Source of the DNA: a virus
Lineage: Duplodnaviria > Caudoviricetes
Strand: one strand, 5' to 3'
IMG/VR virus record: IMGVR_UViG_3300020213_000034
Location: 611-64,610 of that record
Length of the DNA: 64,000 nucleotides
The notes under the pieces were generated by a model. It was given only the letters and a program-made list of their open reading frames with translations. It had not been told where the DNA came from and ran no database searches. Shown here piece by piece: positions 1 to 63,701 of the stretch (its first letter is position 1; each line of letters starts with the position of its first letter). The position numbers were made by a program, and so were the translations under genes.

Positions 1-236
1 TCCATTTCCGCGTCGGGCTTCCATTCGAGATGCCGCCAGAGGGGTTTGGCGGCGCGTTTATTCTGTCGGTTTTCGGCCGCAAGACACCACCGGCAGTGAT
101 ACCCGCGGAACACGAACCGAGGCACTTCGCCGTGCATACCACAGGGCCCGTGCGCGTATTGGTGAGTGAGTTTCCCAGCGCGCTTGTGACATCCATCACA
201 CACGGCCTCGGTCGGTTGTTTTTCAGGAGTGCTCAT
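1..236 (-). CDS. hypothetical protein, truncated by window edge (MSTPEKQPTEAVCDGC...)
   Basis: ATG at 236 overlaps the end of the methyltransferase gene; N-terminus matches the M[NS]T[PQ]EK[QE] start shared by neighbouring genes. Confidence 0.55.
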   Translation of the reverse strand, partial: MSTPEKQPTEAVCDGCHKRAGKLTHQYAHGPCGMHGEVPRFVFRGYHCRWCLAAENRQNKRAAKPLWRHLEWKPDAEM

Positions 237-1065
237 CTTGGGTGTTCGCCAAAAGCCGAGCAAAGAGCGTCCCTTGCCCGTTCTCGAAGTATTCGTATTC
301 GTCCATCGTTGGCCCAGGGCAACCGCATTCCGAATAATCCTCCCCGCAAATTGAGCACTCGCCATATTCGTTACAGTCACCCGAAAAGGCCACCTGCTTC
401 CATCCCCCAATCGCCGGTGCCCATTGGTCTGCCATCGCCGCCGCAATGCCAGGATACGTCTTGCTGCGCAGCTTCCAACGGTCTGCGGAGGGTGTGAGCT
501 TGTTCTGTCCGCTGTCGGTCTGGTTCGCCCAACGCTCCACGTTGCCCACCATCCGCCCCGGCACTCGCTTCGTCGGCGTGAGCTTCGGAAGCCGGTGCAG
601 CCACAGGCATGTCCGCTTGCTCGCATCCTCTCCGAATTGGTAGGGCTGCACGGTCTGCGTCGGCTTGCGGATTTGAGTCGAGATTATAGACACCGGATTT
701 TCGAGATACCATGGTTTATCCCCGGCCAGCTCGATCAACTCGCGGACGAATGCGAGAGCGGCATTTGTCTTTTCCCATCCACGTCCCCGGTTGTTCCAAT
801 GGATGCCGGCGACGGTCAGGAATGTGCAGTCTGGGTGCATCCCATACCCGCCCCACTCACGCGAGCGCATCGCGTCGCGGCAGTCGCCTTGGATGTGGTA
901 TGGACTGGTATCGTCGGAAGGGAGTAGGTCGCAGCTCCATGCGTCGATTCCCTTCGCGCGGAGTGCTTCGCGCACCATTCCTGAGTGCTCGCAGCAAACC
1001 AAAAAAGACGCCGGCGGCGAACCCGTCGCCACGCCCTCGGTCGTTTCTTTTTCAGGAGTGTTCAT
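223..1065 (-). CDS. phage DNA cytosine-5 methyltransferase-like protein
   Basis: CEHSG..VR.A...G.DAWSCDL, HPDCTFL (PC-like motif IV), LENPVS, QPYQFG..ASKRTCLWL, RSKTYPGIA.AMA.QW are typical of this compact phage C5-MTase family. Confidence 0.8.
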   Translation of the reverse strand: MNTPEKETTEGVATGSPPASFLVCCEHSGMVREALRAKGIDAWSCDLLPSDDTSPYHIQGDCRDAMRSREWGGYGMHPDCTFLTVAGIHWNNRGRGWEKTNAALAFVRELIELAGDKPWYLENPVSIISTQIRKPTQTVQPYQFGEDASKRTCLWLHRLPKLTPTKRVPGRMVGNVERWANQTDSGQNKLTPSADRWKLRSKTYPGIAAAMADQWAPAIGGWKQVAFSGDCNEYGECSICGEDYSECGCPGPTMDEYEYFENGQGTLFARLLANTQDEHS

Positions 1066-1283
1066 GGTTGTTTTGGGATTCTGGAGTTAGCCTTATGGTC
1101 GGAGATGATTTTCTCGCCTTCGTCGATTAGCTGATCGGCCAGAAAAAGCGAATAACCCACGAGGTCTTTGACCTTGCAATTTACGAGCGCCCAGCCGCAC
1201 CCCGGGTTGTGCGCAAAGACGGCATTGTTCGCCGCAAATCCCGCCAGTATTCGCGAGGCGATTTCGATTCGTTGTGCGCTCAT
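1062..1283 (-). CDS. hypothetical protein
   Basis: 73-aa ORF with ATGA overlaps to both neighbours. Confidence 0.65.
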   Translation of the reverse strand: MSAQRIEIASRILAGFAANNAVFAHNPGCGWALVNCKVKDLVGYSLFLADQLIDEGEKIISDHKANSRIPKQP

Positions 1284-1465
1284 GGTTGATTTGGGTTCTG
1301 TGGATCAGAATCTTGGGTGTTCGCCAGAAGTTTATCCTGGATCGCGTTTGCGTAAGCTTGGATTTCTGTGACTGGCAACAAAAGCGCGTATGGCCCTATT
1401 TGTGCCAATAGCACATCTCTCCAGTTTTCGATTTGCGCGGGCGTAAGCACTATGTTGGGTTTCAT
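1280..1465 (-). CDS. hypothetical protein ending in LANTQDSDPQNPNQP
   Basis: coupled ORF whose C-terminus is encoded by an attC half-site plus the linker repeat. Confidence 0.6.
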   Translation of the reverse strand: MKPNIVLTPAQIENWRDVLLAQIGPYALLLPVTEIQAYANAIQDKLLANTQDSDPQNPNQP

Positions 1466-1477
1466 GGTGTGGCTTGT

Positions 1478-1696
1478 CTACTGGTTCTCCAGATTCCATC
1501 TGGCTTTCCATTTGGCTTGTTTCCGGACGTGAAAAAGACACGCCGCCACATCCCGCCGGCCAGCGCACGCTTCCGCGGCCCGTTTATGCCAAATGGCGCG
1601 ACCGAAGCAGAATGAAGCCCAATGCGGCCTAACAAAACGCCAGAGCCAACGCGGCCATTTGCCGCGTGATTGTGTATCAGGAATATTCGAGTGCAT
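1478..1696 (-). CDS. hypothetical protein (MHSNIPDTQSRGKWPRWLWRFVR...)
   Basis: ATG lies inside the attC-like site; the N-terminus is encoded by its right arm. Confidence 0.5.
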   Translation of the reverse strand: MHSNIPDTQSRGKWPRWLWRFVRPHWASFCFGRAIWHKRAAEACAGRRDVAACLFHVRKQAKWKARWNLENQ

Positions 1697-1749
1697 AGAG
1701 TGATTGCGGAGATTATAGCCCGCCGCGTGGCTCATCTTGGGTGTTGGGC
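1627..1749 (-). repeat. integron attC-like recombination site (123 bp)
   Basis: minus strand GCCCAAC-ACCCAA-GATGAGCCACGCGGC...GCCGCGTTGGCTCTGG-CGTTTT-GTTAGGC: RYYYAAC/GTTRRRY cores, spacers, and an imperfect inverted repeat with an extra base. Confidence 0.8.
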
Positions 1750-2036
1750 AGAGCGGACTCACAGGCTTGGATTGCAGTTTCGCGACTCGGCGAGATTCCG
1801 CTTTCGCAGCCAGCCATCCAGTTCCAGTTTCCGTCCGTTCGACGCTCAACTGACGCAGCGATGTTACGGAGCCGCCCCTCGTATTTGGTGCCAAGCGCCC
1901 AGATAGTTGGGCCGTGCCCTACGCACGCCCATTCAGTGTTCGTTTTATTGTTTTCGGAAGCCCAACCAGCCGCCAGACCGAACGCGCTTGGGCGTCCGTC
2001 CGGCGAGCGGGAGTCAGTGAGATGCGCGTCGGTCAT
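1713..2036 (-). CDS. hypothetical cassette-like gene between two attC-like sites
   Basis: ORF starts in the 1960-2050 site and ends (LPNTQDEPRGGL) in the 1627-1749 site. Confidence 0.5.
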   Translation of the reverse strand: MTDAHLTDSRSPDGRPSAFGLAAGWASENNKTNTEWACVGHGPTIWALGTKYEGRLRNIAASVERRTDGNWNWMAGCESGISPSRETAIQACESALPNTQDEPRGGL

Positions 2037-2050
2037 CTTATTTGTTAGCC
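1960..2050 (-). repeat. integron attC-like recombination site (91 bp)
   Basis: minus strand GGCTAAC-AAATAA-GATGACCGACGCGC...GCGCGTTCGGTCTGG-CGGCTG-GTTGGGC; same architecture as 1627-1749 with covarying arms. Confidence 0.8.
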
Positions 2051-2280
2051 TGAAGATCGGCCCGCGTAAATGGCCCGCAGTTGGGGCGGAAGTTCGGACA
2101 ATTCCAGTCGGCAACGCATTGAGCCCACGTCAGGTGCATCGCGGAGCGGGAGCAGTAGTTTACACATTCGACCGCGCCGTGTTTTCCGCGCCGTGCGGCG
2201 CCGCCGCACACCGGACAGGCCAACAAATCGCCACAGCCAACGGCCACGGCCCCGGTCGTTTGTTTTTCTTGAGTGCTCAT
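2038..2280 (-). CDS. Lar-like / zinc-finger small protein
   Basis: CPVCGG.A...V.C...C....A...WN pattern resembles restriction-alleviation Lar-like Zn ribbons. Confidence 0.5.
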   Translation of the reverse strand: MSTQEKQTTGAVAVGCGDLLACPVCGGAARRGKHGAVECVNYCSRSAMHLTWAQCVADWNCPNFRPNCGPFTRADLQANK

Positions 2281-2618
2281 GGTTGATTTGGGTTCTGTGG
2301 ATCAGAATAAACCGGCACCCGCATCCACGCGATGACCTTGCCCGAGTATTCCCAACTGGTCTCGCATATGTCGCACGACTCTTGATGCCAGCCGGTCCAG
2401 TAGTATTCGCCTTCTTCGCCCGGCACTGGCTCCGCATCGGAGGGCGGATCGCAGTCGTCGCTCGCCGGCGAGGCGTGGCGGTTGAGGTATTCGAGAGTGA
2501 CAAAGCTCGTTTTTCTGGAAGCGGTCTGCACGGCACACCAGAAGCGTTCGCGTTTGCCCTTGGCCACGTCCGGCGTGCCGACCTGCCATTTAAGCGGTTG
2601 TTTTTCTTGAGTGTTCAT
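2277..2618 (-). CDS. hypothetical protein, paralogue A (MNTQEKQPLKWQVGTP...)
   Basis: near-identical paralogue at 2935-3276; C-terminal VIAWM.VP resembles DUF551-type endings. Confidence 0.75.
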   Translation of the reverse strand: MNTQEKQPLKWQVGTPDVAKGKRERFWCAVQTASRKTSFVTLEYLNRHASPASDDCDPPSDAEPVPGEEGEYYWTGWHQESCDICETSWEYSGKVIAWMRVPVYSDPQNPNQP

Positions 2619-2662
2619 AGTTGTATTTGGGTTTGGAATGTTGGGCGGGGTCGTGGCTCGTC

Positions 2663-2938
2663 TCAGTGGTTCGGCTGAAACTTTTCGATGCCCGCCTTGA
2701 TGCGACGCGCCTCGTATTCGAATCCTATCCACGAAAACACGGCTTCGTAGCATTCTTCGGAGCATACGCATGGCTCCCTCGGCTCTCCTCCGCAGCCGCA
2801 CTCCTGTCCTGAGCAACAGTATTCAGGCACATAGCCCGGGACTGGCTTGCTGCAAATAAGGCAAATCGGGATAGCCGATCGAGTGATCAGCGCGGGTCTA
2901 TGTTGGCTATCGGGTTTTATGCTTGGTTCATTGCTCAT
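2663..2938 (-). CDS. Cys-rich hypothetical protein
   Basis: CLIC...CCSGQECGCGG.P...CS..C; ends at an attC left half-site. Confidence 0.65.
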   Translation of the reverse strand: MSNEPSIKPDSQHRPALITRSAIPICLICSKPVPGYVPEYCCSGQECGCGGEPREPCVCSEECYEAVFSWIGFEYEARRIKAGIEKFQPNH

Positions 2939-3276
2939 GGTTGATTTGGGTTCTGTGGATCAGAATAAACCGGCAGACGCATCCATGCGACGACCTTGCC
3001 ATCGTAGTCCCAAATGGTGTTGCACGTGTCGCACGACTCTTGTTGCCAGCCGGTCCAGTAGTATTCGTCTTCTTCGCCCGGCACTGGCTCCGCATCGGAG
3101 GGCGGATCGTAGTAGTCGCTCGCTGGCATGGCGTAGCGGTTGAGGTATTCGAGCACGATGCATCTCGTTTTTCCGGGATCGGTCTGCACGGCACACCAGA
3201 AGCTTTCGCGTTTGCCCTCGGCGACGTCCGGGTTGCCGACCTGCCATTGAAGCGGTTGTTTTTCTTGAGTGTTCAT
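2935..3276 (-). CDS. hypothetical protein, paralogue B (MNTQEKQPLQWQVGNP...)
   Basis: duplicate of 2277-2618. Confidence 0.75.
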   Translation of the reverse strand: MNTQEKQPLQWQVGNPDVAEGKRESFWCAVQTDPGKTRCIVLEYLNRYAMPASDYYDPPSDAEPVPGEEDEYYWTGWQQESCDTCNTIWDYDGKVVAWMRLPVYSDPQNPNQP

Positions 3277-3283
3277 GGGTGAT

Positions 3284-3676
3284 TTAGGGTTTGTGTGTCT
3301 GGCCGGGCTTGGGGTTTGGCAGAAGAGAATCAAACGCCTCTAGGGTGAACATGTGCCACTGGGCTTCTACCACCTCGTCCGTTGTTTTATCCCATTGCAT
3401 GGCCCCGCTGTTATTTTCTATCCCCTGCCGAAAGCCTGTGACGTATGCGCGTGAGATTGCGCGGGCCGCGCGCTCGATTTGCGCGTCAGAATAATCGGAG
3501 CCTAGCAAATCGTCAGGGTGCGCCGCTGGTGCGGGGACGTACTTGTAGGTGAGCCATGCATTGGTCGAGCATGGGCACAAGCTCAGGAGCTGTACCGCTG
3601 GTGCGGGGTTCGTCGGCGCGCTGGCGACGATCATGTCGTCGGTTTCGACGATATGTTTTTCAGGTTCGTTTTTCAT
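3284..3676 (-). CDS. hypothetical protein
   Basis: 130-aa ORF in the minus-strand operon. Confidence 0.6.
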   Translation of the reverse strand: MKNEPEKHIVETDDMIVASAPTNPAPAVQLLSLCPCSTNAWLTYKYVPAPAAHPDDLLGSDYSDAQIERAARAISRAYVTGFRQGIENNSGAMQWDKTTDEVVEAQWHMFTLEAFDSLLPNPKPGQTHKP

Positions 3677-3804
3677 GTTTCGAAGATGACGTTAGCGACA
3701 GCGGCCATGACGGCGAGCAAAACGACAAAAGCGAGCTTGAGTATCACCGCGCCAATGAAGACATCGACATCTAGTTTATTTTTTCCGGTTGGTTTGTCTT
3801 TCAT
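3673..3804 (-). CDS. small membrane protein (MKDKPTGKNKLDVDVFIGAVILKLAFVVLLAVMAAVANVIFET)
   Basis: 43-aa ORF read from the sequence, with a hydrophobic stretch and an ATGA overlap. Confidence 0.45.
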   Translation of the reverse strand: MKDKPTGKNKLDVDVFIGAVILKLAFVVLLAVMAAVANVIFET

Positions 3805-3940
3805 AGGGCCTGAAACTTGGCGGAACGGGTATGAGGTGCTCAATGGCAACCGCTTGAAAACAATGAAGTTAGCTATTCAGGGGTTGGGTGATCCCGAAAT
3901 CTGTTTCGGGATCACCGCGTGGGCGGCTGCGGAGGGGGCA

Positions 3941-4318
3941 TTAGGGGTGGCACGGTTTCCACGAGACGCTGGTGAAGAAGAGGAAAAGCGCGATGATGCC
4001 AAAGACGATGGCGCCAATATAGACTTGGCGGTCGCTGCGCTTTTCCTCGACCAATCTTTCGGCCGCTAGCTTTTCGCCGGCCAGATCGTGGAGACGTATA
4101 AATTCGGCGCGTCGGGCGGCCAAACTGTTTTTTTGTTTTTTCTTTTTCATGGAGTGGTGGTGGTGTATTTGCCGCGTCGCGGTACTTGGCACGGGCGGCG
4201 CATATGTCGGCCGCAGGTCCAGCGCCGCGTCGTAACCGGCGGCGAGGGCGGCGTCGGCTTCGGCGGCACGTTTGCGGCGGGCGGCGATGGGGGCGGTAAT
4301 TTCGATCATGGGGGTCAT
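3941..4318 (-). CDS. hypothetical protein with Ala-rich N-terminus and C-terminal TM helix
   Basis: starts MTPMIEI like the Ala-rich paralogues at 63.1-63.7 kb; shares AALAAGYDAAL with the upstream gene. Confidence 0.5.
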   Translation of the reverse strand: MTPMIEITAPIAARRKRAAEADAALAAGYDAALDLRPTYAPPVPSTATRQIHHHHSMKKKKQKNSLAARRAEFIRLHDLAGEKLAAERLVEEKRSDRQVYIGAIVFGIIALFLFFTSVSWKPCHP

Positions 4319-4322
4319 TGGG

Positions 4323-4868
4323 TTACAAGTCGATGTCGGCATCGTATTTGAGGCGAGCGGCGGCGTGTTTGGCGAGGCGGACAGCATGGTGGGGAGAGCA
4401 GGCGGCTTCGCAGGCGGCTTCGCAGGCGGCTTTGAGGCGAGTGGCGCAGGCGGCGGTGGAGCAGGCGGCCCGCACTGCGCGGCAGTGGGTGAGGTGTGGA
4501 GCGCACGCGGCGGTGCATTCGGCATTCGCGGCGGCCAGCGCCGCGTCGTAACCGGCGGCGAGGGCTGCGTTATATTCGGCGTTGTGCCAAGGCAGGTCCG
4601 ATGCGATTACGCGGTCCTTCTGGGCCCGCCGGTTGGCATGGCGACGTAGGTCGCGCGCTGCTTCGGCGCAAAGGGCGCGCACCTTTGCGGCGTGGATCGT
4701 GAAATCTTTCGGGAGCGTGTCGCGGTAACCCACGACAGCGACGCAGACAGCTTCCGCTAGGTCGAGCGCCTGTATCGCATCGCGGAATCCGCGCTCCGCG
4801 AAGCGGGCGGCGTTGAATTTGGCGCGGACGGCGTCGAGGTTGGCTTCGGTGTTGATTTCGTTTTTCAT
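4323..4868 (-). CDS. Ala-rich helical repeat protein
   Basis: AALAAGYDAAL, AACEAACEAAC and APHL..CRA motifs shared with the genes at 63-64 kb. Confidence 0.65.
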   Translation of the reverse strand: MKNEINTEANLDAVRAKFNAARFAERGFRDAIQALDLAEAVCVAVVGYRDTLPKDFTIHAAKVRALCAEAARDLRRHANRRAQKDRVIASDLPWHNAEYNAALAAGYDAALAAANAECTAACAPHLTHCRAVRAACSTAACATRLKAACEAACEAACSPHHAVRLAKHAAARLKYDADIDL

Positions 4869-5062
4869 TTCGTTTCTGGTTTTTTGTCCTTGGGGGCGTT
4901 GGCCCTTTTCCACGCGAAGAAGTCCTGCGCATCCTTCAGGTATAGTTGCCTGCATTTTTGCTCTTGGTGCTGTGCGTCACGCCGCTCGGCCTCTTGGTAT
5001 TGTTGGTCATCGGCCTCAAACCCCATGGCTTCAAGTTCGCCCCAGATGTTTCGTTTACTCAT
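4865..5062 (-). CDS. hypothetical protein
   Basis: coupled 65-aa ORF. Confidence 0.6.
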   Translation of the reverse strand: MSKRNIWGELEAMGFEADDQQYQEAERRDAQHQEQKCRQLYLKDAQDFFAWKRANAPKDKKPETK

Positions 5063-5258
5063 GTCGTTCTACTTTTGACGTAAGGTGCCACGCCCGGCAG
5101 GCGGGGCAAGGATAAATGCGCAAAGCCTCTGGGCGCTTGCGATGCGCGCTCATTCTTGCGTTCATCGCCGTCTGGGCTTCACGCTTACTGTAAGGGGTTT
5201 TCTGGCAGGAAAATCCGCCACGCCCGCCCCAATCAATCAATGGAAGCGGGCCAGTCAT
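5055..5258 (-). CDS. small Zn-finger phage protein
   Basis: C.K..YSK.EA...R.Y.CP.C.AWHLTS motif. Confidence 0.7.
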   Translation of the reverse strand: MTGPLPLIDWGGRGGFSCQKTPYSKREAQTAMNARMSAHRKRPEALRIYPCPACRAWHLTSKVERHE

Positions 5259-5503
5259 GCCAGTCTGACGGTTTCGACATTCCGCTCCGTTTCCGAGTCC
5301 CGCTGAATGCCGGCTACCGACAGCTTGCCAGCAACAATCAGCTCATTGACCCGGCCGCACACGCTGCTCAGGCGCATTCCGGTGGCCTTGGCGATCCCAG
5401 AGCGAGAAAGCCCGGCGCACATAAACAGGCAGCCGAGCACGCGCTGATGGCCGTCGGCCTTTGTCGGCTTGGTGGCCTTGAGTGATTCAGCCTTGGTGCT
5501 CAT
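5255..5503 (-). CDS. winged-HTH DNA-binding protein
   Basis: GLSRSGIAKATGMRLSSVCGRVNELI..G. Confidence 0.7.
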   Translation of the reverse strand: MSTKAESLKATKPTKADGHQRVLGCLFMCAGLSRSGIAKATGMRLSSVCGRVNELIVAGKLSVAGIQRDSETERNVETVRLA

Positions 5504-5754
5504 TGCAGGACGCGATTGTGGATAACCCCGACCTTGTAAAGCGGTGCAAGCCTTCCCGAGTCAAACAGGACTGACTTCTCAAAAACGCCGCGGATTTCCA
5601 TGGTTTTTGCGATGATCTTGTTCAGCTGACGGAGGCCCCTGAATCCCGGGAATGTCGTGGGGTGATCGGCCGGGAGGAGCACGCCAAGATTTTTATCGAA
5701 CGCGAGCGGCCTCCCGTTGGACTCCGCGTAGTGGACTTTCTTCTTCTTTGCCAT
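5500..5754 (-). CDS. hypothetical protein (MAKKKKVHY...)
   Basis: ORF with A/C-rich upstream region and ATGA overlap. Confidence 0.55.
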   Translation of the reverse strand: MAKKKKVHYAESNGRPLAFDKNLGVLLPADHPTTFPGFRGLRQLNKIIAKTMEIRGVFEKSVLFDSGRLAPLYKVGVIHNRVLQ

Positions 5755-5767
5755 TGTGGTTGGTGGG

Positions 5768-6346
5768 TTAAGGTTTGCAGCTGACTCCGGGGGCAGACCC
5801 GCGGCGTTCGCACTCTTCCTGAAGCAGAGCCAGACTGCGCCACGCAAGGGACCGCAGGTGCTCGAGTCTGTCTGGGGTGGAGGTGTTGCCAGCATCGATC
5901 AGGTGCCGCACGATGCAGTCGGCGTGATCGGGGCTTTTCCAGCGGGCCCAGTGCGGGCCTTTCACGTTACCCGGGGTGTGCTTCTGGTCCGATGTGAGCG
6001 AGTGGCGGGCGACCTCAAAAAGGGCAGCCGGGAAGTATCCAAGAAGACCCCGAAACATGGGGGCGGTCTTGCGCTCGTCGCTGTCCTGAGGAATAAAGTA
6101 TTTCTGTTCCGAAGACTGCAAGCATTCAGTTGTGTTCGGCTGGCTAATTCCGCCTTGCTGGGGGCAGGGGATTTTGCGATAAACCCTCCATCGCCCCTCC
6201 CCCTCCTCCATTCTCCCCACTGTGCGGCCAACACCCCAGCTAACAAACGCCTCGGGTATTCCGTCGCAGACATAAATGTCCCCTAGTGCACAAAGCACGT
6301 CAGGTTCAAGATGCTGGTATCCGCCGATGTGGGATGGTAGGTTCAT
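5768..6346 (-). CDS. dATP/dGTP diphosphohydrolase-like (DUF5664-type) protein
   Basis: RK..P.FRGLLGYFPAAL.EVA..S...DQKH.PG...HWAR.KS.DHADCI.RHL.D...HL..LAWR.LA.LQ. Confidence 0.7.
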   Translation of the reverse strand: MNLPSHIGGYQHLEPDVLCALGDIYVCDGIPEAFVSWGVGRTVGRMEEGEGRWRVYRKIPCPQQGGISQPNTTECLQSSEQKYFIPQDSDERKTAPMFRGLLGYFPAALFEVARHSLTSDQKHTPGNVKGPHWARWKSPDHADCIVRHLIDAGNTSTPDRLEHLRSLAWRSLALLQEECERRGSAPGVSCKP

Positions 6347-6582
6347 AGTGAAAGAATGTTCTCCATGTAGATTCCACGAGCCCCAGTGATTTTGTGCTCC
6401 ATCAGGGTATATTCGGTGGAAACCGGCATGCCGCCAAATAGGATCGCTTGCTTGAACTCGCGCCAAACTGTTTCGTGATTGAATCCGGCTATCCGGCGAA
6501 TCGGTTTGCAAATTGTTTCTACGCAAACTGGCTTGGATTGAACTGGCGTCATCTGCCGAGACCGTGCGGGTATATTTTTCAT
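6343..6582 (-). CDS. hypothetical protein
   Basis: 79-aa ORF coupled to the next gene. Confidence 0.55.
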   Translation of the reverse strand: MKNIPARSRQMTPVQSKPVCVETICKPIRRIAGFNHETVWREFKQAILFGGMPVSTEYTLMEHKITGARGIYMENILSL

Positions 6583-6613
6583 AGGTCAAAACTTTAGTGT
6601 TGCCACGGTCTTC

Positions 6614-10331: not shown

Positions 10332-10406
10332 GCCTCAGTGATGTAGAAGTCAACATACGACCTTGCCAAGGTTGATACCAGAGTGCGAATCTCTGCTGGG
10401 GCACCA
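10332..10406 (+). tRNA. tRNA-Gly(GCC)
   Basis: cloverleaf; anticodon loop TTGCCAA; encoded CCA. Confidence 0.9.
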
Positions 10407-10411
10407 ATTTT

Positions 10412-10538
10412 CTGAAGACGACGGACGAGGCTTTGGCCCGGCGAAAATCCGGGATGGGTAGCGAGCGGTCGTTTTCAGGTGTCCGATGGTAGCGCGGGTC
10501 ACTTGGCTTGCCACTGTGTCAGCGCGAGAGTAGGACCT
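10412..10538 (+). ncRNA. unknown structured RNA
   Basis: CTGAAGACGAC/GTCGTTTTCAG stem enclosing a T-arm-like CCCGG-CGAAAAT-CCGGG, followed by a second paired domain. Confidence 0.4.
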
Positions 10539-10539
10539 C

Positions 10540-10628
10540 GGGTCGATTCCGATAGCAGCGAATCGTTTGGCCTTTTAAGCCAACTGGAGAAATCCACGTC
10601 GGGGGTGCAAGTCCCTCTCGGCCCACCA
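10540..10628 (+). tRNA. tRNA-Lys(TTT) with long variable arm
   Basis: TTGGC-CTTTTAA-GCCAA; variable stem TGGA-GAAA-TCCA; CCA. Confidence 0.88.
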
Positions 10629-10634
10629 ATTTAT

Positions 10635-10709
10635 GGCGGTTTAGCCAAGCAGTAAGGCAGTGGCTTGCAAACCCACTATACGTCAGTGCAATTCTGACAA
10701 CCGCCTCCA
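10635..10709 (+). tRNA. tRNA-Cys(GCA)
   Basis: loop TTGCAAA; U73; CCA. Confidence 0.9.
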
Positions 10710-10713
10710 AACT

Positions 10714-10783
10714 AGGAAGAAATGCCGGCTCGAATCCGGCGCGGTCCTACGGACCGACTCGTCTAAGCGACAAGGCGCTTCCT
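10714..10783 (+). ncRNA. circularly permuted tRNA-like RNA (YrlA/Y-RNA-like topology)
   Basis: AGGAAG, AAAT, T-arm GCCGG-CTCGAAT-CCGGC, closed acceptor hairpin CGGTCC-TAC-GGACCG, D-arm GTCT-AAGCGACA-AGGC, CTTCCT. Confidence 0.65.
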
Positions 10784-10789
10784 CTCTTT

Positions 10790-10865
10790 AGGCCGAAAGC
10801 ATTGTTAGTAATGCACCTCCCTTGCACGGAGATTTCTGCGGGTGCAACTCCCGCTCGGTCCACCA
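10790..10865 (+). tRNA. tRNA-Ala(TGC)
   Basis: loop CTTGCAC; G3-U70; CCA. Confidence 0.9.
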
Positions 10866-10871
10866 ATTTAT

Positions 10872-10929
10872 GTTCCGGCCCACCTGACTTGTGGGCTTAA
10901 ATGATGTAGTCGTAAAACTAGGAACTCCA
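10872..10929 (+). ncRNA. small three-way-junction RNA ending in CCA
   Basis: GTTCC/GGAAC stem plus TCCA; GGCCCAC/GTGGGCT and TAGT/ACTA hairpins. Confidence 0.4.
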
Positions 10930-10930
10930 T

Positions 10931-11006
10931 GCATCGGTAATTCAGTGGCCAGAATGTCTGCCTTCCAAGCAGAACGTCGTGGGTTCGACTCCCACCCGGT
11001 GCTCCA
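10931..11006 (+). tRNA. tRNA-Gly(TCC)
   Basis: canonical cloverleaf; loop CTTCCAA; U73; CCA. Confidence 0.93.
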
Positions 11007-11012
11007 TTTCAT

Positions 11013-11097
11013 CCAGCAGTGCCAGAGCAGCAATTGGAGGTGGCTGTAAACCATCTGCCTTCGGGCTACGGAGGTGCAAGTCCTTCCTGCTGGACCA
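11013..11097 (+). tRNA. tRNA-Tyr(GTA), C1-G72, long variable arm
   Basis: CCAGCAG/CTGCTGG acceptor; loop CTGTAAA. Confidence 0.9.
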
Positions 11098-11104
11098 ATT
11101 TCAT

Positions 11105-11179
11105 GGGGGATTAGCTTAAATAGTAGAGCGCGTGCCTGATTAGCGCGTGGCGGTGGAGCGTTACCACCATCCCCTACCA
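11105..11179 (+). tRNA. tRNA-Ile(GAT)
   Basis: loop CTGATTA (U37); T-loop AGCGTTA; CCA. Confidence 0.88.
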
Positions 11180-11185
11180 TTTCAT

Positions 11186-11259
11186 AGGGCCGACAGGTAT
11201 AGTATCGGCAGGCACTCCAAACGCCTAGCGAGTTGGTGCGATTCCAACCGGCCTTGCCA
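11186..11259 (+). tRNA. tRNA-Trp(CCA)
   Basis: loop CTCCAAA; G73; weak D arm; CCA. Confidence 0.82.
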
Positions 11260-11260
11260 T

Positions 11261-11378
11261 TTCAGTATGATAGCAACGATAGCGACAGCGTATGTCGCAT
11301 TGTGGATGATCCTTCTTCCGCAGTGGCGACGTAAGAACTAAGACAACAACAGGGCCGCCGGACGCCGACGCCCTCTAA
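11261..11378 (+). ncRNA. unknown structured spacer RNA
   Basis: long hairpin TATGTCGC-ATTGTGGA/TCCGCAGT-GGCGACGTA plus an AGGGC/GCCCT hairpin. Confidence 0.35.
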
Positions 11379-11383
11379 ATTTC

Positions 11384-11459
11384 GGGACGGTAGCTGATGT
11401 AGTCATAGCGGCGGCCTGAAGAGCCGTTGAAGTTGGTGCAATTCCAACCCGTCCCACCA
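11384..11459 (+). tRNA. tRNA-Phe(GAA)
   Basis: loop CTGAAGA; CCA. Confidence 0.9.
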
Positions 11460-11465
11460 TTTTAT

Positions 11466-11537
11466 TGCCGGGAGATTTGGAATCCTCCAGCCTCATAAGC
11501 TCGGATGAAGTGAGTTCGATTCTCACCCCAGCATCCA
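11466..11537 (+). tRNA. tRNA with CAT anticodon (Met/fMet-like), miniature D arm
   Basis: loop CTCATAA; T arm GTGAG-TTCGATT-CTCAC; CCA. Confidence 0.78.
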
Positions 11538-11543
11538 TTTCAT

Positions 11544-11619
11544 CGGTCCAAAGTGTTACTTGGTCGCACACTCCGTTTGGGGCGGAATAGTCGGGGTTCA
11601 AATCCCCGTGGGCCGACCA
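11544..11619 (+). tRNA. tRNA-Pro(TGG)
   Basis: C1-G72; loop TTTGGGG; CCA. Confidence 0.92.
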
Positions 11620-11642
11620 CCTTCGTCAGCAATATCAACCCA

Positions 11643-11999
11643 ATGCTAGTCATTTTCATTCTCATGAATATCTCCTGCCCCCCGAATTACAAGACGTCCG
11701 TCTCCGCCAGCCCGCGCAATCAGTTCGGGATGCTTGGCGGATATACGCCTCCGCTTCAGTGGAGCGTTGATCCGACGTTTGGCTCGTTTATTGAAGACCC
11801 GGAGCATCCCGGCGACACAACCCTCGGCTTCTTCGTTGCGACAACCGATAATGCAAGGTATGGCCAAACGACCAATTATACGGTCACGGCCCAAACGGTC
11901 AACGGGCCAGTCGTGCAAAGTGGAGGCGTGCAGCTAAGTTTTCCGGAGGCCCCGGCTGACCATATTACGGTGACCGTGGGTCTACCAGTCCCTGCCTAA
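11643..11999 (+). CDS. hypothetical beta-rich (Ig-like?) protein inside the tRNA array
   Basis: ~118-aa ORF filling the gap between two tRNA-Pro genes; alternative start at 11664. Confidence 0.6.
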   Translation: MLVIFILMNISCPPNYKTSVSASPRNQFGMLGGYTPPLQWSVDPTFGSFIEDPEHPGDTTLGFFVATTDNARYGQTTNYTVTAQTVNGPVVQSGGVQLSFPEAPADHITVTVGLPVPA

Positions 12000-12009
12000 T
12001 GGCAGTTTT

Positions 12010-12085
12010 CCAGATGTGGTGCCAAAGGCTGGCGACTCCGCTCGGAACGGAGATTATGCAGGTTCGAGTCCTGTCATCTGGACCA
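12010..12085 (+). tRNA. tRNA-Pro(CGG)
   Basis: loop CTCGGAA; CCA. Confidence 0.9.
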
Positions 12086-12089
12086 TTTC

Positions 12090-12167
12090 AAATCAGCGGT
12101 GAGCCGGCGCGAATCCGGCCTGCACCTCGGCCAAGGTTTTTCGCGGGCTCCGCGAATCCGCTGATTT
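12090..12167 (+). ncRNA. unknown four-way RNA with 5'-proximal T-arm
   Basis: AAATCAGCGG/CCGCTGATTT stem; GCCGG-CGCGAAT-CCGGC; TTCGCGG/CCGCGAA. Confidence 0.5.
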
Positions 12168-12177
12168 TCACTTTCAC

Positions 12178-12251
12178 GGGTTATTGTTGAATGAGTATCT
12201 TGTCCCTCTGTCTAAGGGACGTAGCGAGTGCGAGTCTCGCATAGCCCGCCA
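12178..12251 (+). tRNA. tRNA-Asp(GTC), unpaired D region
   Basis: loop CTGTCTA; G73; CCA. Confidence 0.82.
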
Positions 12252-12255
12252 TTTC

Positions 12256-12331
12256 CCACGATTAGTTCAACGGCTAGAACGGCAGTCCTACACACTGCGC
12301 GCAGAGGGTTCGACTCCTTCATCGTGGACCA
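12256..12331 (+). tRNA. tRNA-Val(TAC)
   Basis: loop CCTACAC (C33); CCA. Confidence 0.88.
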
Positions 12332-12336
12332 TTTAT

Positions 12337-12415
12337 TGCAAGGAAGGCAAATCGGTGAACGCCGGCAGTCTGTTAAACTGTGTCGTAGATGGTTCGACCC
12401 CATCCCTTGCAGCCA
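12337..12415 (+). tRNA. tRNA-Asn(GTT)
   Basis: loop CTGTTAA; G73; CCA. Confidence 0.9.
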
Positions 12416-12419
12416 TTTC

Positions 12420-12495
12420 GGGAGTGTAGCTCAGCAGTCAGAGCATTCGGTTGTTAACCGACAGCGCGCAGGTGCGAATCCTGCCACTCCCTCCA
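12420..12495 (+). tRNA. tRNA with GTT anticodon but U73 (identity uncertain)
   Basis: GGGAGTG/CACTCCC-T-CCA; loop TTGTTAA. Confidence 0.82.
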
Positions 12496-12496
12496 T

Positions 12497-12572
12497 TCTC
12501 GCGTAGCTCAGTAGTTAGAGCGCCTCCTTGACATGGAGTAGGTCGCTGGTGCGATTCCAGCTGCGAGAACCA
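12497..12572 (+). tRNA. tRNA-Val(GAC)
   Basis: loop TTGACAT; CCA. Confidence 0.9.
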
Positions 12573-12577
12573 TTTGA

Positions 12578-12637
12578 GCCCTTGGACAATACCGTGTGCC
12601 GCATCCCGGCAGCTGTGCGACCCAGCAATCCAACGGC
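12578..12637 (+). ncRNA. small structured RNA / degenerate tRNA-like element
   Basis: GCC-TTGGA/TCCAA-GGC stem; TGCCG/CGGCA; T-like GCTG-TGCGACC-CAGC. Confidence 0.4.
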
Positions 12638-12643
12638 GGTTAC

Positions 12644-12718
12644 GGGCCTATAGTGTAACAGTCAGCACACGGAGCTTTGACCTCTTGAGACTAGGTGCAA
12701 ATCCTAGTGGGCCTGCCA
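12644..12718 (+). tRNA. tRNA-Gln(TTG)
   Basis: loop CTTTGAC; G73; CCA. Confidence 0.9.
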
Positions 12719-12725
12719 ATTTCAT

Positions 12726-12800
12726 GCCTCGTTCGTATATCGGCAATTACGCCGCTCTCTGAAAGCGGACAGGGTGGTTCGATTCCATCACGGGGCGCCA
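12726..12800 (+). tRNA. tRNA-Gln(CTG)
   Basis: loop CTCTGAA; G73; CCA. Confidence 0.9.
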
Positions 12801-13022
12801 TTTCAATCGCGGGCATTCGCTGTCTTGTCTATCTGGCGGGATAGAGGAAGTTCGCGTCTGCACAACACGTCGAGGCAGGCTCACGCCGTTACGACCTCAC
12901 GACCGCAGCAAGCCAAACAGAACGAGGGGTGAGTGTTGCTCCTATGACTTCGGGTTGGCGCTCAGACAAATGAATGCCTCCTGCTTCGGCAGAAGACAGA
13001 AACGCGGCTACAGCGATTGAAA
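12801..13022 (+). ncRNA. rnpB: minimal RNase P RNA (catalytic domain intact, specificity domain nearly absent)
   Basis: P1 TTTCAATCGC/GCGATTGAAA; P2 GGGCATTC/GAATGCCT; P3; CR-I GAGGAAGTTCGCGT pairing with CR-V ACAGAAACGCGGCTA (P4 with bulged U); P5; P6; P15 with GGU; CR-IV AGACAAATG; P19 CTGC-TTCG-GCAG. Confidence 0.88.
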
Positions 13023-13029
13023 ACTTTAC

Positions 13030-13104
13030 GGACCACAAGCATTAACAGTGATGCACTAGGCTCTTACCCTTGGGAACACGGCGCAATACCGTGGCGGTCC
13101 ACCA
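13030..13104 (+). tRNA. tRNA-Lys(CTT)
   Basis: loop CTCTTAC; CCA. Confidence 0.9.
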
Positions 13105-13106
13105 AT

Positions 13107-13160
13107 TTCTGCCAGTTGCCGGATACCCAACGCGGTTCCCGGAACCTTCTTCTGGCAGGA
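13107..13160 (+). ncRNA. small structured spacer element
   Basis: TTCTGCCAG/CTGGCAGGA stem enclosing GGTTCC/GGAACC. Confidence 0.35.
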
Positions 13161-13164
13161 TCAT

Positions 13165-13236
13165 GGCCGGCGATTCAGCAATCCACAGACTCTCATAAGG
13201 TCAGTGAATCCGGGGCAGCACCGGAGCCAGCTTCCA
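13165..13236 (+). tRNA. tRNA with CAT anticodon (Met or Ile2), reduced D arm
   Basis: loop CTCATAA; T-loop GGCAGCA; CCA. Confidence 0.75.
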
Positions 13237-13241
13237 ATTTC

Positions 13242-13319
13242 GGTCTAAATGCGGAGATAGTCACCGCGCATCATTGGTAATGATGAATAGGCTGGGTGCG
13301 AATCCCAGTTAGACCTCCA
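13242..13319 (+). tRNA. tRNA-Thr(GGT)
   Basis: loop TTGGTAA; U73; CCA. Confidence 0.9.
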
Positions 13320-13325
13320 GTTTAC

Positions 13326-13409
13326 GGGGATATGGTGGAACGGCAGACACAGTTGCCTTAGAAGCATCCGACGAAAGTCATGGGGGTTCAAATCCCTCTA
13401 TCCCTACCA
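13326..13409 (+). tRNA. tRNA-Leu(TAG)
   Basis: loop CTTAGAA; long variable arm; CCA. Confidence 0.92.
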
Positions 13410-13415
13410 ATTTAT

Positions 13416-13490
13416 GGCCGATTCGACAACCAGCTAAGTCCTCGCCCTTTCAAGGCGAAGTAGTGGGGGCAGCACCCACATCGGCTACCA
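13416..13490 (+). tRNA. tRNA-Glu(TTC)
   Basis: loop CTTTCAA; CCA. Confidence 0.9.
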
Positions 13491-13495
13491 TTTAT

Positions 13496-13570
13496 GGCCT
13501 GTTCGTCTATAAGTCAGGACGGTTGCTTCTCAAGCATCAAAGGCGGGAGCGTTACCCGCACAGGCTACCA
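13496..13570 (+). tRNA. tRNA-Glu(CTC)
   Basis: loop TTCTCAA; CCA. Confidence 0.88.
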
Positions 13571-13571
13571 T

Positions 13572-13805
13572 TTGATTGGAACTACCCAGATGCGCTGGGA
13601 CGTGGCAGCAGGAAGCTGAAGGGGATGCGCAAGCGAGTCGGGTCATGGCTGACAAGGGCGAAACTCCGTTACACTAAGGCACTCCCAGAGATCGTAAGCT
13701 CTGGCTCCGCGCTGCAGGGAAGCATTTTCAAATGAGCGGTCAACCGAATGCCATCCCTCCGCTACACGGGCCTCTCGGCGGGATGCAAAACCCGCTTTCA
13801 ATCAA
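13572..13805 (+). ncRNA. unknown ~235-nt multi-helix RNA
   Basis: terminal stem TTGATTGGAA/TTTCAATCAA; nested GTGGC/GCTAC and GGGGATG/CATCCCT; hairpins CCCAG/CTGGG, CAGC/GCTG, CCAGAG/CTCTGG, GCATT/AATGC, GCGGG/CCCGC. Confidence 0.6.
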
Positions 13806-13808
13806 TCT

Positions 13809-13892
13809 CGGCTTGTGGTGGAACAGCAGACACAGGGCGCTCAAAACGCCCCGCCTAACCGCGTGAGGGTGCGATTCCCTCCTTGCCGACCA
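13809..13892 (+). tRNA. tRNA-Leu(CAA)
   Basis: loop CTCAAAA; long variable arm; CCA. Confidence 0.9.
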
Positions 13893-13899
13893 ATTTCAT

Positions 13900-13990
13900 A
13901 GTCTCGTGTCCCAGCGGACCCGGAGGATTTATACCCCTCAGTGCGCCAGATTAGCGCCGTGACTGGGGGCAGCACCCAGCGGGACTACCA
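13900..13990 (+). tRNA. tRNA-Ile(TAT) with long variable arm
   Basis: GAGGA-TTTATAC-CCCTC; variable stem GCGC/GCGC; AGTCTCG/CGGGACT acceptor; CCA. Confidence 0.8.
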
Positions 13991-13994
13991 TTTC

Positions 13995-14066
13995 GCAGAT
14001 GCCTTCAGCAAGGCAGCGGCTTTCGTAAAGCTGATGAAGTCGGGGCAGCACCGACCTTCTGCTCCA
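13995..14066 (+). tRNA. tRNA-Thr(CGT)
   Basis: loop TTCGTAA; U73; CCA. Confidence 0.8.
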
Positions 14067-14072
14067 TTTCAT

Positions 14073-14146
14073 GTTGGCTTGTATTCAGCAATCCTACCGC
14101 CCTTGTAGCGCGGAAGAAGCCGGGGCAGCACCGGCAGCCAACTCCA
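14073..14146 (+). tRNA. tRNA-Thr(TGT)
   Basis: loop CTTGTAG; U73; CCA. Confidence 0.8.
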
Positions 14147-14152
14147 TTTCAT

Positions 14153-14231
14153 CAGGGGAAGTAGTGTAACGCAGCAAACACTGGAGATTGTGAACCTCCG
14201 ATTGTGGGTGCAAATCCCGCCCCCCTGACCA
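14153..14231 (+). tRNA. tRNA-His(GTG) lacking G-1/C73
   Basis: loop TTGTGAA; acceptor CAGGGG/CCCCTG; A73; CCA. Confidence 0.85.
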
Positions 14232-14235
14232 TTTC

Positions 14236-14310
14236 CCCGTCATAGCTCAAGAGACAGAGCAAGCCCCTGCGAAGGGCGAGATTGCAGTGCGAGTCTGCAT
14301 GATGGGACCA
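14236..14310 (+). tRNA. tRNA-Arg(GCG)
   Basis: loop CTGCGAA; CCA. Confidence 0.88.
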
Positions 14311-14314
14311 TTTC

Positions 14315-14391
14315 GTCTCGTTACATCAATCATATAGACCCGGGCCTTCTAAGCCTTGTGGATGCTGGTGAGAGCCCAGCACGAGACACCA
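14315..14391 (+). tRNA. tRNA-Arg(TCT)
   Basis: loop CTTCTAA; T-loop TGAGAGC; CCA. Confidence 0.85.
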
Positions 14392-14394
14392 ATT

Positions 14395-14464
14395 TGCGGA
14401 TACTTATTGGGGTAGTGCCCAAGCCCAAAGGACGGCACCAAGTCCGAGTAAGGTAATATCCGTG
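14395..14464 (+). ncRNA. long interrupted hairpin RNA
   Basis: GCGGATA/TATCCGT, CTTATT/AGTAAG and GTGCC/GGCAC nested stems. Confidence 0.4.
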
Positions 14465-14474
14465 ATATATTTTT

Positions 14475-14549
14475 GCTCCATTCGTCCAATGTACAGGGCC
14501 TGCGTCTTCGGAACGCATGATGAGGGTTAGATTCCTTCATGGAGCGCCA
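14475..14549 (+). tRNA. tRNA-Arg(TCG)
   Basis: loop CTTCGGA; CCA. Confidence 0.9.
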
Positions 14550-14567
14550 CTTTATAAAAACCATCAC

Positions 14568-14642
14568 TCTCTTGTAGCACAAAGGACAGTGCGGCGGTTT
14601 CCTAAACCGTTGATGCGGGTTCAAGTCCCGCCGAGAGAACCA
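14568..14642 (+). tRNA. tRNA-Arg(CCT)
   Basis: loop TTCCTAA; CCA. Confidence 0.92.
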
Positions 14643-19750: not shown

Positions 19751-21391
19751 ATGGCTGATTCATCGCTCAGGCCCCAAGTTGGCGACACGTCCAACCTCCT
19801 TCTCAAGAAGCTCGTAGAAGCTACGCAGGCGCTTGCGGCTGGTGGCGGAGGCGGTGGCATTCCAGACGCTCCAGTCGATGGAATAACTTACGGCAGAAAG
19901 GATGCTGCGTGGGTTGCTGTTCAGGCGGGATACATCGATGGCGATGTCCAGTTCTACGCCGACCTTCCGATCACGATTGGAACCCCAGCGCTGGACTCGG
20001 CGTATCTGGTGCGCGAGCCATCCGGCGTTTGGTTGGTCAACTACCACCCGGCCGGCATCTATATCCGCACGGGAAATTCTGGCGCGTTGTCCGACTGGAC
20101 ATACGCAGGAGAATTCCCTGATGTTTTTAGTGACGCGAACTTTCAGGTCTATAACGCAGCGGATGCCACCAAGCAGCTGAAGTTTGGGGTCGGCCTTATT
20201 ACTCCAGCCACGGTTCGAACCGCGCAGTGGCCGGACAAAGATGGCACTGTTGCTATGCTGGATGACGTCCAGCCGGGCCCAACCGGTCCTACGGGTCCTA
20301 CTGGAGCCGCTTCTACAGTCGCAGGCCCAACCGGCCCAACAGGCCCAACGGGTGCTAACTCTACTGTGGCCGGCCCGACTGGCCCGACCGGTGCTAACTC
20401 TACTGTGGCTGGCCCGACTGGCCCGACCGGTGCTAACTCTACTGTGGCTGGTCCAACCGGTCCTACGGGGCCGGTATCAACTGTGGCCGGTCCAACCGGT
20501 CCCACTGGCGCGAACTCCACGGTGGCCGGACCCACGGGCCCAACAGGGCCAACAGGACCGACCGGTGCAAATTCTACGGTGGCCGGCCCGACAGGCCCAA
20601 CCGGTCCGACAGGCCCAACAGGTGCAGATTCTACTGTGGCTGGCCCGACAGGCCCGACTGGCCCGACCGGTGCAAACTCTACGGTGGCCGGCCCAACCGG
20701 ACCAACCGGTCCGACCGGTGCTAACTCTACGGTGGCTGGCCCAACCGGGCCAACAGGGCCAACCGGTCCAACTGGGCCAACTGGTGCAAATTCTACGGTA
20801 GCCGGTCCAACAGGACCAACAGGACCAACAGGTCCAACTGGTGCTGACTCTACGGTGGCTGGCCCAACCGGGCCAACAGGGCCGGCCACGGCTCTCTACA
20901 ACGCGAACGCCACTGATGTCGTGGCCAACGCCACCGACACTTATCTAACCGGCTCCGCGCTCACGGTCTCTGGATTCATCAAGGTCGGATCAACCCTGCG
21001 CTGGTCCCTCATGGCCAGCAAGACGGTAGCGGGCACAGCGGTCCCGACCTATAATATCCGATTCGGCGCGGGAGGCACCCTGACCGACACGGCCCGCATC
21101 ACCACAACCGGCGTCGCCCAGACTGCTGCGACCGACTTTGCCCGCATCGACATTGTCGCGGTAGTCCGTGCCCTCGGCGCCACCACCGTCGTTGCTGGTG
21201 GCCACTGCTTGCAGCACAGCAACGGCGTTATCGGCTTCAAGAACGACGAGGGAAACAACATTGCCAGCGCCACATCCGCCGCATTTGATTCCACGCCGGG
21301 CAGCACGCAGGCCGGCATCTCCATCAATCCCGGCGCTGCTGGGGTCTGGACATTTCAAGTGGTTTCTGCGTGTCTTGAGAACACCGCATGA
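19751..21391 (+). CDS. collagen-like virion fibre protein
   Basis: [15 protein letters not shown] fibritin/foldon-like motif; (GPT)n repeats broken 12 times by G-x-x-STVA. Confidence 0.85.
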
Positions 21392-53831: not shown

Positions 53832-53911
53832 GCCCGCCGAGCATTCACATGCCAAAAACGCTGTCAAAACAAAATTATTGACGAATTAAGGCCATCTAAT
53901 ACCATGATCGG

Positions 53912-62971: not shown

Positions 62972-63117
62972 TCCAGCCCCTCCTCTTCGGCGCGGTCGCG
63001 CTCGTGGCGCCACACGACGAACAGGGCGTAGGCGAGGCAGCCAAGCGGGAACACCAGCACGAGGCCGATGGATGCGATGATGAAGTATATTGTTGGGTCC
63101 ATGGTTGTGGGTATCAT
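62968..63117 (-). CDS. small membrane protein
   Basis: IYFIIASIGLVLVFPLGCLAYALFVVW TM segment. Confidence 0.55.
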   Translation of the reverse strand: MIPTTMDPTIYFIIASIGLVLVFPLGCLAYALFVVWRHERDRAEEEGLE

Positions 63118-63419: not shown

Positions 63420-63422
63420 GGG

Positions 63423-63698: not shown

Positions 63699-63701
63699 GG
63701 G

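Follow-up and report, generated by a model that had tools for sequence, protein, structure and literature searches.

Two intact integron attC sites lie at 1627-1749 and 1960-2050 of a 64,000-nt stretch of phage DNA (hereafter, the window), which corresponds to bases 611-64610 of the IMG/VR virus record IMGVR_UViG_3300020213_000034 (Duplodnaviria; Caudoviricetes). The record has 64,610 nt, a G+C content of 58.8%, and a completeness of 94% as estimated by CheckV. The sites are found within a run of small genes (A to J in Table 1) that includes an orphan DNA methyltransferase. Probably, the region 1-3300 is a partly decayed cluster of attC sites lacking integron integrases (CALIN) placed among phage accessory genes, the units of which would have been moved by the integrase (IntI) of the host and eroded afterward. 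Integron cassettes are a main route of accessory-gene trade among bacteria, and an orphan DNA methyltransferase is a typical counter to restriction. The array makes testable the idea that phages reshuffle genes of this kind by way of a host integrase.

Read on the minus strand, both sites have a common build. The 7-nt AAC box is followed by six unpaired bases, GAT, a 6-bp arm, the upper stem, and the loop; on the returning side come the upper stem, an unpaired T, the 6-bp arm, a second unpaired T, GGC, five unpaired bases, and the GTT box. In site 1, the R box GCCCAAC leads through the 6-nt spacer and GAT to the arm GAGCCA, and the returning side reads TGGCTC, GGC, a 5-nt spacer, and GTTAGGC. 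Site 2 has the same spacing, with the arms GACCGA and TCGGTC and the boxes GGCTAAC and GTTGGGC; two pairs of the 6-bp arm differ between the sites, and complementarity is kept. In both sites, the 6-bp stem separates the unpaired T's, located at positions 16 and 23 from the 3' end. Both also have a large terminal loop, of about 36 and 62 nt. According to the accessible part of a study of mobile and Vibrio integrons (Nivina et al. 2016, PMC5027507), attC sites are 57-141 bp long, end in RYYYAAC/GTTRRRY, and have 5- or 6-base spacers and a terminal structure that varies; on the arm facing the AAC, a 6-bp stem lies between two extrahelical bases, one at position 16, in most cases G, and the other, a conserved T, at 23 or 24. 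Both window sites agree with this description in their spacers, in the position and spacing of the two extrahelical bases, in overall length, and in the variable terminal loop; the core boxes also agree, with one departure in site 2 (GGCTAAC). They differ from those sites, as far as that text describes them, in the T as first extrahelical base and in the large loops. The sequence-only reading that preceded this analysis had proposed the two complete sites and their covarying arms, and both proposals are borne out by the geometry and by the covariance models described below. Its consensus cores hold for site 1 and fail at one position of site 2, its 6-nt spacers hold for the AAC arm (the opposite arm has 5 nt), and its single extra T per site has to be corrected to two.

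Genes start and stop inside the sites, as that reading had also noted. Gene D ends in site 2 (stop at 2038) and gene E in site 1 (stop at 1713); an ATG (1733-1735) stands at the start of the 6-bp arm of site 1, and the start codon of gene E (2034-2036) is at the foot of the 6-bp arm of site 2, the whole of which is read through by E. Genes D, E, and F each read the 3' arm motif in a frame of their own, which identifies it as an element of the DNA and not of the protein. A reading of the 5' motifs that genes have in common as conserved leaders for translation, or as a peptide tag, was rejected for the attC halves, given the three frames of the 3' arm and its recurrence in bacterial arrays.

Copies of the element were recovered from other viral contigs. 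Exact scans of the viral_contigs collection with a 23-nt linker and with a 27-nt shared gene-start motif gave no matches. A 20-nt scan with part of the 3' arm gave six stretches, by eye five unrelated ones and one true copy, in front of the methyltransferase gene of locus L083. A fuzzy search revealed four copies in L003, located before its methyltransferase gene and extending into it. In the copies of these two loci, the stem letters differ, and the pairing and the unpaired T's are kept. Seven phage copies, site 1 included, served to build a first covariance model (R1), which gives 70.6 bits to site 1, one of its own members, and which finds 284 matches over 100 viral loci (E up to 0.001). 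A second model (R2) was built from the best 150 R1 matches in other viral contigs, none of them from this record. With filters off, R2 matched the minus strand at 1621-1755 (60.0 bits, E 1.8e-12) and at 1954-2056 (57.8 bits, E 6.2e-12), and the plus strand of site 1 reached only 8.5 bits. Over the 64-kb window, nothing else was found below E 1 apart from 2212-2309 (15 bits, E 0.15). A 23-nt degenerate pattern of the 3' arm occurred in 116 stretches of viral_contigs.

The proposed structure is conserved across this family. Among 55 phage and bacterial copies, 93.2% of the cells are paired, versus 78.7% in shuffled alignments and 20-42% when the partner is slid; 17 of the 23 pairs (7/7 in the upper stems) change on both sides, and none of 500 shuffles reaches the observed values. 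It should be noted that the alignment of the 55 copies was fitted to the model, which favors the structure.

The 23-nt pattern is also present in at least 120 stretches of the genome_contigs collection, with up to 14 matches in 8 kb at single loci among those listed. Fifty-five of the 80 genome matches listed (of at least 120) were labeled Verrucomicrobiota, an assignment that for some of them we take from genus and family names. The integron integrase model TIGR02249 was matched in five genomes, above its curated cut-off in three of the five and in none of 14 control genomes. At four integrons, it gave 413, 324, 337, and 439 bits (cut-off, 265), and the fifth integrase (G009) is split in two pieces of 200 and 237 bits, both under the cut-off. 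Within the 12-20 kb taken around each of the five integrase genes, R1 found 21, 21, 10, 2, and 3 matches (L339, L340, L341, L342, and L343, respectively), all of them upstream of the integrase gene and on its coding strand. Integron cassettes are transcribed away from intI, in a divergent layout, and therefore the modeled strand, i.e., the sense strand of the phage genes, corresponds to the attC bottom strand, to which the integrase binds in the folded state; the extrahelical-base rule gives the same answer.

The phage sites have in common with the chromosomal integrons of Verrucomicrobiota the attC family (R1 gives 19-63 bits on 115 matches in 11 loci), the attC geometry, cassettes of about 180-520 nt, and the ATG-bearing variant of the L box (17 in L222 and 4 in L246). 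The bacterial integrons differ in having an integrase and arrays of 20 or more sites and in carrying the longer open reading frame (ORF) on the top strand in 42 of 57 cassettes. Judging from these comparisons, the phage sites belong to the attC family of Verrucomicrobiota chromosomal integrons, and this family, taken by itself, points to a probable host within the phylum. This ties phage sites to a specific bacterial attC family and hence to a probable host phylum, and for a phylum with few phage-host pairs in culture, it would provide a host marker based on sequence. Incidentally, L222 (8 kb), which has at least 18 attC sites of the ATG-bearing sub-type of the window, is on a 9-kb contig binned as Paceibacterota, a bin assignment that looks doubtful.

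In bacteria, this attC family is tied to integrases, and the phage record appears to have none. Searches of all 64,610 nt of the record at E up to 1 gave no match to PF00589 (tyrosine recombinase) or PF00239 (serine recombinase), in agreement with what the sequence-only reading had said of tyrosine recombinases in the window. With two attC sites close together and no integron integrase match in the record, the array is CALIN-like, as had been proposed.

Natural variants of the array were found in related populations. Six public runs contain the stretch, all of them microbial-mat and hypersaline-lake metagenomes, two being possibly the source of the record. Contigs of the other four were aligned to 1-5000, and the uncovered parts in three of them (X4 to X6) were not counted as absence. 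One X5 contig (1,265 nt) joins 1062-1309 directly to 1734-2046, with 12 letters common to both sides, and lacks the cassette-sized unit of 424 nt in between (Table 1). This gap is bounded by the R box and ends within the AAC plus 9 nt. A contig of X3 follows the window to 1745, the last T of the R-box GTT, and is unrelated from there, with no similarity in the 30 letters beyond, a joint that fits site-specific exchange better than homologous recombination. A second X3 contig follows the window over all of 1275-2272. Gene A is missing from another X5 contig, in which 2952-3289 is skipped between two copies of a non-attC linker of 40 nt. Just past the array there is a variable spot, 3667-3941, replaced by about 18 other letters in X3, X5, and X6. 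Further joints were set aside for having a short side (20-29 letters) or unknown letters between the parts: 236 to 2243, 1745 to 2601, 2294 to 4580, 2518 to 4783, and 2676 back to 2243. The sequence-only reading had staked its interpretation on matches of an attC covariance model and on cassette-level variation at the GTT crossover points; R2 matches both sites, and related natural populations differ by cassette-sized units ending on the R box or its GTT, i.e., on the recombination point. Its observations are confirmed in part, and its interpretation is supported. Relatives found by way of the exonuclease gene (two loci, 41-43% identity) had no attC site and are uninformative on cassette order.

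Some of the isolated half-sites may reflect a process of erosion. Hidden Markov models (HMMs) of the 5' and 3' halves were built from the 150 copies of R2. Of the six half-sites that had been proposed from the sequence, the 3' half at 2218-2242 was supported (E 1e-3) and the 5' half at 231-253 was borderline (E 0.072); the other four lack statistical support, the one at 1310-1328 with E 12 and those at 2652-2675, ~3300-3320, and ~1000-1030 without a match to either HMM. The supported half is inside the 5' end of gene D, in a frame different from that of the same motif in E and F, and the borderline one is where the methyltransferase gene meets its neighbor, which has its ATG at 234-236. At 1310-1321, 12 nt repeat the letters of site 1 at 1734-1745, which on the sense strand correspond to the AAC, the spacer, and GAT. 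With one half-site supported and another borderline, site decay is plausible.

Beside the attC sites there is a second junction module, a 40-nt linker without an attC fold (repeat family D15). It closes one gene (..SDPQNPNQP and stop) and opens the next through an ATGA overlap. The identities are 95%, 90%, and 68%, three of the copies being 90-95% identical. Genes A, C, D, I, and J have the first 7-12 codons in common (MNTQEKQ.. or MSTPEKQ..), and A and C are paralogues (repeat D6, 88% identity over 300 nt).

All the array genes, methyltransferase included, are on the attC bottom strand, unlike the canonical layout in which the ORF is on the top strand with the attC site at its 3' end. The sequence-only reading had missed this reversed placement. 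Each window unit consists of an attC site and then one or two small ORFs, with the upstream ORF ending in or just after the R box, and the unit missing from the X5 contig has this same order. Among bacterial cassettes, the top strand has the longer ORF in 16/20 (L339), 14/20 (L340), and 12/17 (L222), and the L-box ATG of L222 opens merely 19-36 codons at all 17 sites. For viruses, the 19 loci with at least three of the 150 best matches were taken, and the bottom strand had the longer ORF in 44 of 64 cassettes, versus 15 of 57 in bacteria (Fisher p 4e-6), although the longest ORF is a crude measure in G+C-rich DNA and some of these loci may be other than phage. By a stricter measure, an ORF that starts in the attC site and spans the cassette, there was no significant difference (21/64 viral versus 12/57 bacterial, p 0.16).

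The methyltransferase gives the clearest view of such units. Its core has homologues in L002 (88% amino acid identity; blastn limits, 1008 to 257), L003 (73%), and L083 (45%), with different leaders and tails. The first 29 residues in L003 and about 33 in L083 are encoded by the attC site, and a same-strand attC site is found at the 5' end of a methyltransferase gene in five contigs (L003, L083, L207, L156, and L206). The homologue in L002 has an 11-residue leader, no attC site, and different neighbor genes, with a terminase gene adjoining. The bottom-strand excess in viral cassettes and the attC-methyltransferase units in five other contigs hint that phages of Verrucomicrobiota might keep a cassette pool of their own, reversed, with a bottom-strand ORF and a 5' attC site that provides the start codon and a short leader peptide. 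The stricter ORF measure speaks against such a pool, and we regard it as a tentative idea that is rather doubtful. If it were true, the recombinogenic strand would be the non-template one and hence free during transcription, units would be shuffled among co-infecting phages by a hijacked host IntI, and a unit captured by a host integron would lie antisense to its promoter and be silent.

The way in which the array would have formed can be sketched as follows. When the phage DNA becomes single stranded in a host that expresses IntI, the attC bottom strands would fold, and the enzyme would exchange strands between the AA and the C of the R box, so that whole units are excised or inserted. Homologous recombination between short junction repeats, together with point decay, would then leave half-sites behind and fix the genes. 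Recombination of these sites by a host IntI is what we infer from the evidence above. Insertion of cassettes by IntI outside att sites, as described in the accessible part of a preprint (bioRxiv 10.1101/2022.09.11.507474), would explain single units at a GTT in phage DNA, and it would leave one intact attC site and one half-site, as at 1310-1749.

Several observations weigh against an IntI-driven array. There are only two intact sites, 210 nt apart. Base 16 is a T in both, where the literature has it as usually G. The 3-bp part of the L box is poorly paired in the window copies (G-C, A-G, and T-G), likewise in bacterial copies of the same sub-type, e.g., in L222. The single-stranded DNA folds are not better than those of shuffles (z-scores, -0.20 and 0.01 in site 1; -0.92 and 0.03 in site 2), which counts against a very stable hairpin, and the proposed stems are present in the minimum-energy fold of site 1 only, being missing from that of site 2. 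Given the 12 identical letters on its two sides, the 424-nt gap is just as well explained by homologous recombination. The variants were seen in assembled contigs rather than in reads, with one contig per key joint, which speaks to the existence of such forms and not to their frequency. Finally, the small genes have no relatives in the ~340 loci fetched, so that only the methyltransferase cassette has been seen in two places.

Some of these points would suit an inert relic, in which a piece of a host array, or single cassettes, entered once, the sites are dead, and the present variation comes from homologous recombination between junction repeats. The small number of intact sites, half-sites that are weak or unscored, fold z-scores near 0, and the repeated letters at the X5 gap are all in its favor, and so is the gap at 2952-3289 between linker repeats that are not attC. 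We consider a relic unlikely, if still a serious contender. Against it are the X3 contig that diverges directly after the GTT, the abundance and structural integrity of the family in viral contigs, with compensatory changes, and the recurrence of attC-methyltransferase units in five other contigs. Quite improbable, in our opinion, is an element acting at the RNA level, by which hairpins in an early mRNA would mask start codons, couple translation, or serve processing or weak termination, the likeness to attC being mere ancestry. It is true that the folding strand is the sense strand, that start codons are in or beside the 6-bp arm, that one pair is U-G in 23 of the 55 copies (a pairing possible on this strand only), and that 1-5000 has 15 terminator-like sites versus 7.8 (standard deviation, 2.8) expected. 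However, this strand is mostly antisense to the ORFs of the bacterial arrays, where the structure is equally conserved, which places the constraint on the DNA, and G-T pairs that favor the bottom strand are a published attC trait (PMC5027507, accessible part). In addition, one of the L003 copies has ATA replacing ATG, and an Rfam scan of 1-5000 at E up to 5 gave no matches.

A recombinase or nuclease of the phage itself, of an unrecognized family, could also act on the sites. Most of the large proteins of the record have no family (0/8 and 0/6 large ORFs matched in two scans), which gives room for such an enzyme. It seems very improbable given that the searches for the two recombinase families were negative over the whole record, that the sites match in detail a family tied to bacterial IntI, and that the phage contigs with these sites are otherwise unrelated. 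Lastly, short cores like RYYYAAC occur often, and some of the half-sites do not exceed chance expectation. In the case of both complete sites, a chance resemblance of gene-boundary sequence to attC is refuted by the R2 scores, with the next full-length match at E 0.15, by motif counts far above those of shuffles, and by the covariation across copies. The preferred reading is that of a CALIN in partial decay.

Clusters of attC sites in phages were first reported in 2023 and as rare, with 17 CALINs in 10,705 isolate phage genomes (Qi 2023, PMC9892861). In the accessible part of that report, the cassettes include five methyltransferases, and IntI1 recombined five of the six phage attC sites tested. 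The window array is similar to those CALINs in having two or more attC sites within a few hundred bases, no IntI, and small cassettes with a methyltransferase among them. It differs in that two of the published arrays are co-oriented as in bacteria, whereas the window genes are on the attC bottom strand, and also in its start codons inside the sites, in the decay of most sites, and in belonging to a family frequent in uncultured viral contigs. The words Verrucomicrobia, "opposite," and "start codon" do not appear in the accessible text of that report, and our literature searches revealed no survey of attC sites in viral contigs. The kind of element, a CALIN in a phage, is already known, and the reversed sense relative to textbook cassettes is among the features that set the window units apart.

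Table 1. Features of the attC array and its surroundings (positions in the window)
Feature	Position	Strand	Evidence or remarks
attC site 1	1627..1749 (123 nt)	- (bottom strand)	Geometry; R2 60.0 bits; contains gene E stop (1713) and ATG 1733-1735
attC site 2	1960..2050 (91 nt)	-	Geometry; R2 57.8 bits; contains gene D stop (2038-2040) and gene E start (2034-2036)
Cassette-sized unit, 424 nt (attC site 1, 160-nt doubtful coding stretch F, gene G)	1310..1733	-	Missing from X5 contig
3' half-site (6-bp arm, unpaired T, spacer, GTTGGCC)	2218..2250	-	3'-half HMM E 1e-3 (2218-2242), supported; R2 15 bits, E 0.15 (2212-2309)
5' half-site (GGCGAAC, spacer ACCCAA, GATGAGC)	231..253	-	5'-half HMM E 0.072, borderline
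5' half-site remnant, gene G 3' end	1310..1328	-	HMM E 12, not significant; end of the 424-nt gap in X5 contig
Possible 5' half-site after gene B (GCCGAAC, 6 nt, GAC, GAGCCA)	2652..2675	-	By eye only
40-nt linker, no attC fold	1272..1311; copies 2269-2308, 2927-2966, weaker 3265-3304	-	Repeat family D15
Gene A	2935-3276	-	ORF list; paralogue of C
Gene B	2663-2938	-	ORF list; PHROGs match to one family of unknown function
Gene C	2277-2618	-	ORF list; paralogue of A
Gene D	2038-2280	-	ORF list
Gene E	1713-2036	-	ORF list
Gene F (?)	1478-1735	-	ORF list; doubtful ORF
Gene G	1280-1465	-	ORF list
Gene H	1062-1283	-	ORF list
Gene I, orphan DNA methyltransferase, 280 aa	223-1065	-	phrog_757, E 5.3e-56
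Gene J	Start at 236, runs off window	-	

Up to ~10 kb, the genes of the record run on the minus strand; past 15 kb, most of them are on the plus strand. Few of its proteins have family matches. Pfam at E up to 0.1 gave no family for nine of ten array proteins, and the PHROGs search of the array proteins matched only the methyltransferase and the family of gene B. By tblastn of 12 array proteins against all the fetched loci, 11 were without a match, the methyltransferase being the only one found. A blastn search of 1-6000 against 50,697 phage records gave four short matches, the best of them under a methyltransferase gene. A scan for sigma-70 promoters found one site versus 1.7 expected.

Outside the array, 21 tRNA genes are located at 10332-14642 on the plus strand, many of them followed by the same CCA-TTT motif. 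Between called tRNA genes, at 13174-14152, there are repeats in tRNA-sized steps of 76-80 nt (families D13 and D14), each ending in a GC stem around GCAGCAC and then CCATTT; they were not called by ARAGORN and may be odd or degenerate tRNA-like units. Alanine-rich repeat genes with common repeat families (D2, D4, D5, D8, and D12) are found at both ends of the record (L001 1-500 and window positions 63100-64000) and at window positions 4200-4900. The two ends look similar, and the genome may be terminally redundant or circularly permuted. Within a 546-aa ORF (19751-21391), 20256-20900 encodes collagen-like Gly-Pro-Thr repeats, whose periods are 9, 39, and 57 nt. A 273-aa protein (5768-6589, minus strand) has a weak match to a dATP/dGTP diphosphohydrolase N-terminal domain (PF18909, 28.1 bits; cut-off, 27), which hints at manipulation of the nucleotide pool. 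Finally, a 417-aa C-methyltransferase with a zinc-binding domain (52614-53867, minus strand; PF08484 E 8.8e-47, PF08421, and PF13489) represents an unusual phage cargo.

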